Assembly: GCA_913057245.1 (NCBI GenBank)
Contig: CAJXNH010000020.1
Coordinates: 1-64,000 of the forward strand
Reading direction: 5' to 3'
Source: an uncultured Phaeodactylibacter sp.
GTDB lineage: Bacteria; Bacteroidota; Bacteroidia; Chitinophagales; Saprospiraceae
DNA: 64,000 nucleotides
In this document: piece after piece, positions 4,068 to 56,735 of the stretch
How positions within the stretch are numbered: the first letter of the stretch is position 1
How the letters are laid out: the number at the start of each line of letters is the position of its first letter
The notes under the pieces: model-generated
What the model saw: only the letters and a program-made list of their open reading frames with translations
What the model was told of the DNA's origin: nothing
Databases searched by the model: none
Made by a program: the position numbers and the translations under genes

Positions 4068-4301
4068 CTTAGCAGGATAAGACAATTACCGTTATCGTTT
4101 TTCCCGGAAATTGCTTTCAAAAAAGATGAAGCAGGTCTGGATGATACTAATCTTGCTCTGTGGAGCAGGTCTCGCCTGTGCACAACCTCTTGCTGTGGCG
4201 CATGCTCACTCATTTTTACCGGATACCATCCAAATCAAAGACACCTGGTGGGGTGGGCAGCGGTATCAGTTGGAAGGGGATTACCTCAGCCTACGGTAAG
4301 G

Positions 4302-53411: not shown

Positions 53412-53890
53412 ACTATTGCAAGTGTTTTGGTAATGAGAACAAGGAATCGGTCACAACGATGTTGTGTAATTTTTTACCGGGGTGAGTGCTGTCTAGCCTG
53501 AAATAAATATTATGATGGGGTGGATAAGCTAATGAATTATTTGGTTATGATTTTGAATCTTTTGAAAAATATTTTGAATTAAATCCTGTTAGTAGGTAGG
53601 ATTTTGGTGTGGTTGTAACGCGGATTGGACTGATAATGTGGATGTAAACGGCTTACGAGAAGGCCTTTGCAGCGGGCAGGAGGGATATCAGGATATACTT
53701 TTCGGCACAGCAGGATGGAGAGGTGGGCATAAACAGCGACCGCATGGTAATCAAGGGGCTTCCAATCCAAACCGTTTCACCTCCCGCTGAATAGTAGCGC
53801 TGCGTCTAAAGCTAAAGGGGCAAATGCCAGCCGTCACAGCTCTGCAGCATAGCAAAGCCGTGACGGTCGGACAAATCCAGGCTCTCTTAT

Positions 53891-53940
53891 TAGATTTTAT
53901 TAACTGATCTTTCGCATGCGAAAGATCAGTTAATAAAATC
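53891..53940. repeat. perfect 50-bp palindrome (inverted repeat with no spacer)
   Basis: AGATTTTATTAACTGATCTTTCGCA|TGCGAAAGATCAGTTAATAAAATCT equals its own reverse complement over all 50 nt. It abuts or overlaps the stop codon of the minus-strand gene ending at ~53939. Confidence 0.9.
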
Positions 53941-55931
53941 TATTTTACTTTCATGACCCGGAGCAAGAGCGGCGCTTTGCCCGGTTGCCGTATTTCAAGC
54001 AGGTAGAGCCCACCGGGCAGGTTACCGACGGCCCATTGTGTGATGGTATCTCCGGGCATGAGCTGTCTTTGGGCAACGGGCTGTCCCAGCGGGTTGCGCA
54101 GGACAGCAGTAGCTGTATTGCCTCCGTCATTGTGGTATTTCAGGCTGAAAGCATCCTGTGCCGGATTAGGGAAAATGCTTGCCCGTATCCCATCGTGCTC
54201 GCTGGCTTCAGTCCCGGCATGAACAGCCAACAGGTTATTGGCGCCGATATTGGACCTTGTTGCGACCTGGGCGAAGGTAGCCTCTGCCTGGCCGTTGGGG
54301 TCAGTAGTAAAGACCGCCAGCCCCATTTCCACACACGCTTTCATGGGGATGTAAGCCTGGTGCAAAAGCACCCAGCTGCCTGCATCTGAATTCCAGTAAA
54401 AGGCCCGGATGTAGTCGCCCTTCCGGCGCAGTCGCAGCCAGAAGGGGAAGCTGGCATAAAGGCTGCCGCTGCTGCGTGGGCCGTTTTCAACAGTACGGGT
54501 CTCCCGGCGCAGGAGGTTGGTGAGATTGGAGTAAATCGCGATCATTTTTGCGCCCGGCGCATTGTTCTCCCGGATCATAAGGCCCGCGTAGCCACCTGTT
54601 ACACTTTCAATGCGTGCCTGTATACCGCCATCGTTGCACAGTTCCTGGCTAATGAAGCCCAGGTTGTCAGCGTTGGCAGGGATAAGGTTATAGCCGCCGG
54701 TCATAATAGTGAAATCTCCACCATTGGGATTATCGGTGGCACAAGGGTCATAGCTGTAGTCGCTGCCGCTGCCCTGGCTCCCGATATCTGTTGGCTGCCA
54801 GTTGCCGGGGAGGCTGCCCCCTGAGGCGACGGTAATATTAGCTGTGCACTCTGAGGTGTTGTTGTTAGCATCAGTTACCACCACTGGTACAGGGAAGGTA
54901 AGCCCTACTTCGTCGCAGGTGAAGGTAGCGGGGGAGAATTCTGCACTTGCGATGCTGCAGTTATCCGTGCTTTGTGCGCTGTCGAAGACATCTTCCAGCT
55001 GCAACTGGTATTGCCCTTCTGAGCCGATATCCACCGATGAGTCCAGGCAAAGTGCAACCGGGGCAGTGTCGTCCTGTACAGTCACATTAAAGGTACATTC
55101 ATCCTGATTGCCATTGTCATCACTGATGGTATAGGCAACGGTATGCCCGCCAACTGCCAGCGTAGTGCTGAAGAGGGCGCTTTCCGTTACTTCCTGTGGC
55201 GTGCCGTCATCAATGGCAATAGTCAGGGTAATGGGTGAACAGGCCCCGTTGGCTTCGGCCGGGTTATTCCAGGATACTTCCGCCGCGCATTGGCCATTGC
55301 CGCTATCGCTTGTGTTTTTGGTGATTGGGCCGGGGCATGAAATGGCCGGCTCTGGCAGTACGCCCAGCTCAAAGGTAGCACTATTGGTACAGGGGCCTGG
55401 AGTGGTATAGGTTATAGTATAGTTCCCTGGCTGTGAGGCAGCAATATCAATTTCACCGGTTGCAGGATTGATGCTCAGCCCAACTGGAGATACGGAGAAG
55501 GTACCGCCGCTGATGCCGGTGATTTCCGGGGTGGGGCTGTCGGCGTTGGCGCAGTAGGCTGCTTGCCCGTAGCTGAAGGCAGAATCATCTAAGGCATTGA
55601 TAGTGACAGAGACATTCGAAGGTCGCAGTTGTAATTTGTCCCCGCAACGTGAAAATTTAAAGTATTGAATAACAGTGTTTAACAAATTGTGTTCATGTTT
55701 ATGTTTTTGAAAAAGCACACTTTTTTGAAAGATTAATCAGTTAGAATTCTAAGTGTAGAAACCTAAAAAATATAAAGATCAAGTAATCAATAGATTAAGT
55801 ATGTATTTTCATTCTAATTAGGGGGCAAATTACAACTGCGCCCTTGCTGAGCTATCCTGACTGAAAGCTCCTAATGAAGAAATTAATGTTAGCGCTGCAA
55901 ATAGCAGCTGTCGAAACCACCAATATTTCAT
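53939..55931 (-). pseudogene. T9SS cargo gene (HYR domains, conserved pre-CTD module, CTD) interrupted after its signal peptide by a ~217-bp TIR-flanked insertion
   Basis: The body ORF (track 53940..55718, 592 aa, GTG start, no signal peptide) is preceded by the insertion. Upstream of the insertion a short minus-strand ORF from ATG 55931 encodes MKYWWFRQLLFAALTLISSLGAFSQDSSARAQL*, a textbook signal peptide whose stop lies inside the right TIR. Conceptual removal of 55624-55840 joins ...SQDSSARA to RPSNVSVTINALDD... in frame. The body carries HYR-like repeats and a module about 65% identical to the pre-CTD module of the 1031/2118-aa proteins, plus a T9SS CTD. Confidence 0.6.
55624..55840. mobile_element. 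MITE-like insertion: ~217-bp AT-rich element bounded by ~20-bp terminal inverted repeats
   Basis: CGCAGTTGTAATTTGTCCCC at 55624-55643 versus GGGGGCAAATTACAACTGCG at 55821-55840. These are reverse complements apart from a 1-nt indel. The interior is AT-rich and has no ORF. The element splits the signal peptide from the body of a T9SS gene. Confidence 0.5.
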
Positions 55932-56228
55932 GTGATTTATGATTGAAAAGGCAATTATCCCAACCAAAACAAGACAAAGAAAAGTTTTTGTCCCCTCCTT
56001 TTTACCTTCTGATTTCAGGCTTTAAATATCTTCTTCTTCACAGGTCAATCCCAGGTTTTATGCCACTTTGATACGGATGGGAGGGATACGGGGTGAATGG
56101 GCATAGCGATTTATTCCGGATTGCGGTGGGCTACAAACAGCTGGCATTGATTAAACTAATAGACTTGTTAAAGGAAAGCAAACCTCCGCAACCATTTACC
56201 GGGATTCAATACCTTTACCGCAAAAAGT

Positions 56229-56735
56229 ATGCGCCAATTATTGCTGGGCTTAGCCGCCCTGACGTTATTTTCCGCCTCCGGGTGCTATTCCTTTAAGGGG
56301 ATAAGTATTGACTATTCGCAGGTGAAGACCTACTTCGTGGAACAATTTGACATTACCGCACTCAACGCGGAGCCTACGATTGCCATACGCCTGACGGAAG
56401 ACCTGAAAGAAAAAATCCGGACCGAATCCCGCCTGACACTGGAGGAAATCGACCCGGATATCTCTTTTGAAGGCACCGTTACGCGCTATACGGTGACATC
56501 TGAAGCCCCACAGCCCGGGGAGGTAACGAGTATCAACCGATTGACCATAGAAGTAGCGGTGCAGTACATCAATAATGTCAATGAAGAGAAAAGCTGGGAA
56601 CGCAAGCGCCCCTTCTCCTTTTTCTTTGACTTCGGCACTTCCCAGGCCCTGGCAGATGTGGAGGAAGAAGCCATCAGCACCATCAGTCAGCAGATGATGG
56701 AGGATATTTTCAACACTGCCTTTACGGACTGGTAG
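56229..56735 (+). CDS. lipoprotein, possibly LptE-like (LPS assembly)
   Basis: 168 aa with a lipobox (LFSASG-CYSFKGISI). This resembles the C-x-YSF-x-G N-terminus of Bacteroidota LptE-family lipoproteins. The assignment is tentative. Confidence 0.4.
   Translation: MRQLLLGLAALTLFSASGCYSFKGISIDYSQVKTYFVEQFDITALNAEPTIAIRLTEDLKEKIRTESRLTLEEIDPDISFEGTVTRYTVTSEAPQPGEVTSINRLTIEVAVQYINNVNEEKSWERKRPFSFFFDFGTSQALADVEEEAISTISQQMMEDIFNTAFTDW

Follow-up and report, generated by a model that had tools for sequence, protein, structure and literature searches.

Prokaryotic Mutator-like DDE transposases include those of ISKra4 and ISLre2 (p-MULT4 and p-MULT3, respectively), which have been reported for Bacteroidetes too (Guerillot et al. 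2014, PMC3942029). In the window analyzed here, which is the whole 64-kb stretch of DNA (64,000 nt) from an uncultured Phaeodactylibacter sp., a short element was found that resembles the MITEs that derive from bacterial IS. Like these, the window element was small (223 bp) and non-coding, its 23-nt TIRs were those of an autonomous IS, it showed strong hairpin potential and an in-gene insertion, and its siblings were short with unrelated interiors and target-site duplications (TSDs) of 8-9 bp. Unlike these, the window copy had no TSD and one mutated tip, and it is single-copy so far. A second group of comparable systems are the invertible promoters and intragenic invertons of Bacteroidota, for which a short AT-rich segment between inverted repeats at the 5' end of a surface-protein gene is a typical layout. 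The window repeats likewise bracket ~180 bp at the 5' end of a surface gene, but in contrast to invertons they are dispersed IS ends, neither orientation provides an open frame or a recognizable promoter, no recombinase is encoded near the locus, and one orientation was found in all contigs. We consider it likely that positions 55621-55843 of the window represent a non-autonomous, MITE-like derivative of an ISKra4/ISLre2-type IS, residing in the linker of a T9SS-secreted HYR gene which is now a recent pseudogene.

The features of the locus, in window positions, are the following.

53635 to 56165, no strand: strain-specific cassette of 2.5 kb between the M43 peptidase gene and lptE
53940 to 55718, minus strand: body ORF of the cargo gene, 592 aa, GTG start
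53940 to 55625, minus strand: T9SS cargo body proper, from the codon CGA (R) at 55625 to the stop
55621 to 55843, no strand: whole non-autonomous TIR element, 223 bp, its tips aligned to ~40 related TIR copies
55621 to 55643, plus strand: body-side TIR, GGTCGCAGTTGTAATTTGTCCCC, with the outer tip GGT
55644 to 55820, no strand: interior of the element, 177 nt, 23% GC
55821 to 55843, minus strand: signal-peptide-side TIR, GGGCGCAGTTGTAATTTGCCCCC as read on the minus strand, holding the TAA at 55832-55830
55830 to 55931, minus strand: mini-ORF for an apparently orphaned signal peptide, 33 aa plus stop

The 592-aa ORF showed Pfam matches to HYR and to Por_Secre_tail, the T9SS C-terminal domain (28.9 bits, cutoff 27, residues 515-578). 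It therefore carries the C-terminal sorting domain of a T9SS type A cargo protein (PF18962 / TIGR04183 type). The N-terminal Sec signal peptide that such a cargo bears on the same polypeptide was absent, as the N-terminus (MLFQKHKHEHN...) was not signal-peptide-like. Both points had been made in an earlier note on this DNA, which described the ORF as starting at a GTG, with a T9SS CTD and no signal peptide. The cargo body consists of an Ig-like repeat, the HYR domain, a concanavalin-like region and the type A C-terminal sorting domain, and that the listed ORF reaches upstream as far as the GTG at 55718 is due solely to the element being open, by chance, in this frame. Directly at the end of the gene we observed a perfect 52-nt palindrome (26+26, loopless; window 53891-53942) that overlaps its TAG stop. 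This palindrome is single in the window, and all its other occurrences were in copies of this locus; a terminator hairpin is the probable explanation, though it would be an unusually long and perfect one.

The same note had pointed to a signal-peptide ORF further upstream on the same strand, and this ORF was recovered with an ATG at 55931, a TAA at 55832-55830 and the product MKYWWFRQLLFAALTLISSLGAFSQDSSARAQL before the stop. The peptide has a basic n-region, a hydrophobic core (LLFAALTLISSLGAF) and a c-region of small residues. A crude signal-peptide rule was passed by only eight of 364 ATG ORFs of at least 28 aa in the 64-kb window, four of these eight being long real genes, and a signal-like mini-ORF at exactly this place is therefore not expected by chance. 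The mini-ORF looks like a genuine orphaned signal peptide. A further short ORF with a convincing signal-peptide-like start (MKQVWMILILLCGAGLACAQ...) lies elsewhere in the window between two larger ORFs (4126-4299, plus strand, 57 aa), and may encode a small secreted protein or be another gene remnant.

The stop codon of the mini-ORF falls within the 20-mer GGGGGCAAATTACAACTGCG (55821-55840), as had been claimed, and the partner repeat is located at 55624-55643. The two 20-mers, described in the note as reverse complements, are complementary at 19 of 20 positions and so not perfect, but the pairing is beyond chance (none of 100 shuffles gave two matches at three or fewer mismatches). In a repeat search the arms grew to 25 nt at 92%, separated by 177 nt, and comparison with the ~40 related copies set the true TIR length at 23 nt. 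The ~217 bp that had been placed between the repeats is the span with the 20-mers included. The description of this stretch as AT-rich and non-coding was borne out: GC content was 23-31% across the element compared to ~55% in the flanking coding sequence, and the translations showed stops in all frames, across the six reading contexts examined, and no transposase. At 223 bp the element is within the size of MITEs, which are under ~600 bp and have no transposase ORF. Its DNA folds as a long hairpin through the TIRs (-30.5 kcal/mol, z -5.0). The signal-peptide-side TIR is exactly that of the short derivative at locus L025 and has one mismatch to the family consensus, and the outer tip on the body side reads GGT as opposed to GGG in every other copy found.

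The note had also proposed to look for a TSD and for further copies of the element. No TSD was detected around the window element at any offset tried (plus-strand flanks cattcgaa / ttgctgag), where the parent transposase makes one of 8-9 bp. A second copy of the 223-bp element was found neither in the 64-kb window nor in 46 fetched loci, and the interior showed no likeness to the related IS and MITE copies or to the rest of the window (best off-target blastn-short matches 11-17 nt, E at least 0.4). Within the 64 kb there was no further TIR, even at up to five mismatches, and no autonomous copy; searches of the viral_contigs and plasmids collections for the TIR or the element returned nothing. 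The term MITE-like is accurate for this element, and the singleton does not imply a multi-copy MITE family with this interior.

Copies of the TIR were found in related genomes. A scan of one genome per species for CGCAGTTGTAATTTGYCCCC yielded 25 loci, all of which belonged to Phaeodactylibacter, Lewinella or other Lewinellaceae/Saprospiraceae with the exception of one MAG labelled only Bacteroidota. Many of these 25 matches were situated 31-50 nt from a contig end, which indicates a dispersed repeat that breaks assemblies. Rescanning the loci with mismatches revealed a common 23-nt terminus, GGGCGCAGTTGTAATTTG[T/C]CCCC, with copies starting GGG. The informative copies are listed below.

L007, 2994-4448: full-length IS of 1455 bp with one intact 459-aa ORF and a perfect 8-bp TSD (AGCCCAAC)
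L024: IS copy of ~1.45 kb, bounded by TIRs, frameshifted, without TSD
L006, cultured P. xiamenensis KD52: IS copy with an intact 448-aa ORF and one truncated TIR
L006, 3924-5270, and L007, 3017-4396: transposase-family ORFs
L011, L012, L013 and L016: complete copies of a 244-bp non-coding derivative whose end sequence occurs in at least 16 loci of two MAGs
L025: 128-bp non-coding derivative, an internal deletion of the 244-bp form, with an 8-bp TSD
L019: 326-bp non-coding derivative with only a partial TSD match (6/9)

The TIRs of the window element are thus shared with an autonomous IS, represented by the 1455-bp copy in L007, by L006 and L024 and by other copies. In this respect the view of the locus as a MITE-like TIR element was supported, and candidates for the autonomous partner that the note had suggested seeking exist in relatives, including P. 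xiamenensis, which is the species of the window organism or a sister of it, with its intact copy in strain KD52. The advice to look for other copies was answered in part, since the TIR recurs in 25 loci of related genomes and this particular element and interior do not. Derivatives of 128-326 bp bounded by the TIRs were present at six loci, of which four had a perfect TSD of 8-9 bp, one (L019) had the partial match and one (L013) was cut by its contig end. The TSDs measured 9 bp in L011, L012 and L016 and 8 bp in L025 and L007, so that the TIRs are combined with the 8-9-bp direct repeats that characterize the ISKra4 family; counting all paired sibling copies, five of eight had a perfect TSD of this size. 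We take these TSDs and the TIRs beginning with GGG to agree with the description of the partner family in ISfinder. This IS family clearly gives rise to MITE-type derivatives. The full-length copies themselves appeared to be nested in or placed beside other transposase-like ORFs (L007 2631-3203, L024 5094-5966), suggesting IS-in-IS insertion.

Like members of the ISKra4 and ISLre2 families, the partner IS has one ORF of ~450 aa, its best NCBIfam match is ISKra4 (459-aa protein, E 1e-28, profile positions 130-422), and its product shares ~30% identity with plasmid-borne genes annotated as transposases of the ISLre2 family. Unlike them, it reached only 100.7 bits against the curated NCBIfam model NF033572, below the cutoff of 205, and no Pfam domain was matched by the transposase. 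Judged from these profile matches, the protein appears to be homologous to ISKra4 but outside the equivalog. With an E limit of 1e-10, at least 880 protein clusters were related to this transposase; nearly all of them are unnamed 'hypothetical protein' entries, mostly encoded on contigs of 1.4-2 kb, approximately the length of the IS. From its sequence relationships, the group looks like an abundant, under-annotated and divergent ISKra4/ISLre2-like IS branch of Bacteroidota.

The relation between signal peptide and body was then considered at the level of the reading frame. The signal-peptide ATG at 55931 and the body are already in one frame (213 nt from the ATG to the GTG at 55718; current frame 2), and any deletion of a multiple of three nucleotides would therefore "fuse in frame". 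For the same reason the in-frame observation is a one-in-three coincidence and adds no weight. The earlier note had argued that deletion of the 217 nt restores an in-frame fusion, but the junction that it displayed, ARA followed by RPS, requires the removal of 213 nt (55626-55838), and with the two parts in phase beforehand and a canonical element of 223 nt the argument is void. Since 223 is not a multiple of three, cutting out the element itself shifts the body by one base relative to the signal-peptide frame. By arithmetic, the frame is kept only when 223+8 nt are removed, which is what an insertion together with its 8-bp TSD would add, and there is no TSD here. The edges that an excision junction would bring together are ...GCTCAGCAA / TTCGAATG.... 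A plain insertion with no other change does not fit the locus, and its history is most economically completed by some secondary change at the body-side junction.

Protein searches with the in-silico fused product retrieved the gene itself as the only full-length match; the best other match of similar extent was 44% identical. The first 217 aa of the fused product likewise retrieved no protein in which this signal peptide is joined to this domain. The start of the body coincides with the boundary of an Ig-like repeat unit, and '...SNVSVTINALDDSAFSY' corresponds to the inter-repeat linker of homologues, as in P0047 where the linker after the preceding Ig-like repeat reads '...PNSSGVSVTVNALDD'. 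A signal peptide directly before this type of Ig-like repeat exists in other proteins (P0079).

Besides the body, the element and the signal peptide, the cassette comprises 305 bp past the stop and 234 bp of upstream sequence, and this composition fits a single gene unit. The window organism is a very near relative of P. xiamenensis, the LptE proteins of the two being 98-99% identical. In relatives with the same flanking M43 peptidase and lptE genes (L035-L037, L042, L044), 124-531 bp replace positions 53635-56165. No empty site is therefore available in close relatives, because the whole gene is absent there as judged by synteny via LptE. Phaeodactylibacter strains differ in what they have between the M43 peptidase gene and lptE, a hypervariable spot with the 2.5-kb gene cassette here (53635-56165), approximately four tandem copies of a ~138-bp repeat in L035-L037 (L035 6436-6966) and a single short unit in L042 (6813-6936) and L044 (796-982). 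In P. xiamenensis proper the upstream genes are wholly different (WD40, decarboxylase).

Every copy of the locus in the databases was 100% identical DNA carrying the element (L026/L045, L028/L029, L030/L046), all contigs that span the element showed one orientation only, and the members of the body-protein cluster were the same DNA with no strain variation. The JGI contig L027 (sample 3300000547) ends at the inner TIR edge, its position 1 being window position 55822. In the same sample, contig L028 runs across the element and shares 1.9 kb with L027 at 100% identity. The break in L027 is best explained by a TIR common to other elements in that community, although it could alternatively reflect a population polymorphism, and it is the one hint at excision or inversion of the element. 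In metagenome_contigs, a pattern of left flank and right flank separated by 0-30 nt gave zero matches, as did a 20-mer across TIR and interior that is present in L028; as the collection does not contain the sample of L028, both zeros are uninformative.

Our preferred explanation starts from direct observations: the identity of the TIRs with those of an IS family, the full-length and short derivatives of that family, the non-coding nature of the element and the split of the gene. The parent would be an IS of ISKra4/ISLre2 type (prokaryotic Mutator-like DDE) that circulates in Phaeodactylibacter and other Lewinellaceae, and a transposase of this family would have inserted the element in trans. 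Signal peptide and body would formerly have formed one ORF, with the presumed insertion site in the linker from the Sec signal peptide to the first Ig-like domain of a T9SS-secreted HYR surface protein. The TAA in the signal-peptide-side TIR is predicted to stop translation after 33 codons, and the leftover 1.7-kb body would have no export signal, so that the gene is almost certainly inactivated as it stands. A small later deletion or rearrangement at the body-side junction might account for the absent TSD and the GGT tip. The end of L027 at the inner TIR edge is as expected for a repeat that other elements have in common. Most likely, then, the state of the gene is that of a pseudogenizing insertion with a later junction change. 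Counted against this explanation are the absent TSD, the GGT tip, the unrelated interior, the frameshifting length of 223 nt, the absence of an orthologue that joins the two parts and the absence of an autonomous copy in the window; of these, the lack of a TSD, the tip mutation and the single-copy interior are the details that it leaves unaccounted for.

Several of these details would be accommodated if the present junctions were secondary, meaning that the element, or two recombined elements, mediated an adjacent deletion or rearrangement and that signal peptide and HYR body were never directly contiguous. Intervening domains would then have been lost, or the two parts would come from two source genes, with the same frame being the one-in-three coincidence described above. 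The window copy without a TSD, as opposed to the perfect TSD in five of eight paired siblings, the mutated or replaced body-side tip and the frame shift upon removal of 223 nt all point in this direction, and because the body opens with the linker that in homologues follows a repeat (P0047), an upstream Ig-like repeat could have been lost. In contrast, signal peptide and body lie on one strand in one 2.5-kb cassette whose non-coding 5' and 3' flanks are plausible, there are proteins with this repeat type immediately behind the signal peptide (P0079), and neither a second element copy nor a reciprocal junction was seen in the window. We regard both forms of this alternative as unlikely. It is extremely unlikely that a full-length IS inserted and decayed in situ by loss of its interior, with no mobilization as a short MITE. 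A singleton with a unique interior would be consistent with such decay, as would the capacity of the family for deletion derivatives (the 128 bp of L025 from the 244-bp form). The 177-nt interior, however, with its GC content of 23%, is unlike the sub-terminal and internal sequence of the full-length IS copies L003, L006, L007 and L020, and decay does not explain the absent TSD either.

The remaining alternatives concern an on-off switch. If the inverted repeats were recombination sites of an invertible or excisable segment controlling a surface protein, the short AT-rich stretch at the 5' end of the gene and the break of L027 at the inner repeat edge, where L028 from the same sample continues, would be readily understood. 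We consider this very unlikely, as in-silico inversion keeps stops in every frame and the TAA of the TIR is still in frame with the signal peptide; a promoter or an intact ORF was found in neither orientation. The Bacteroidota -7 motif TAnnTTTG is absent from the element in both orientations, and 55400-56300 contains a single sigma-70-like site, which is outside the element and within the signal-peptide ORF. The nine neighbouring proteins that were scanned (48.2 to 63.9 kb) contained no recombinase domain, be it of an invertase or a tyrosine recombinase, all independent spanning contigs had the same orientation and were 100% identical, and the repeats are dispersed TIRs of an IS family rather than locus-specific sites. 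An inverton that recodes the protein was ruled out by the stops in all frames after in-silico inversion. A promoter or RNA role of the interior was rejected too: besides the missing TAnnTTTG, no promoter or terminator-like site lies in the element, no terminator-like site was found in 55400-56300, and the interior matched no Rfam family. Translational bypass and an intron were dropped in view of the 213-nt gap, the lack of take-off and landing codons that match and the absence of any intron-like structure. Finally, a family transposase acting in trans might remove the 223 nt in a subpopulation and restore a secretable T9SS surface protein with its signal peptide, and this excision would have left two traces, a 1.7-kb body ORF that is still intact and a contig that breaks at the TIR edge. 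We judge such a switch highly improbable; if true, it would represent phase variation through MITE excision in a marine Saprospiria. The gene had earlier been proposed to be either inactivated or phase-switched, and while inactivation is a sensible reading of the locus, phase switching found no support.

The likely MITE-like insertion is an event of an ordinary kind and raises no new mechanistic question. Its value lies mainly in annotation and in the description of a poorly annotated IS group. Gene callers list a 'T9SS cargo' of 581-592 aa that starts within the transposon relic, and a disrupted-gene flag is warranted for such entries. The ISKra4/ISLre2-like group has no Pfam model, and its proteins are mostly labelled hypothetical. 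This group spawns several short derivatives with unrelated interiors, and these derivatives fragment the MAG assemblies of Phaeodactylibacter.
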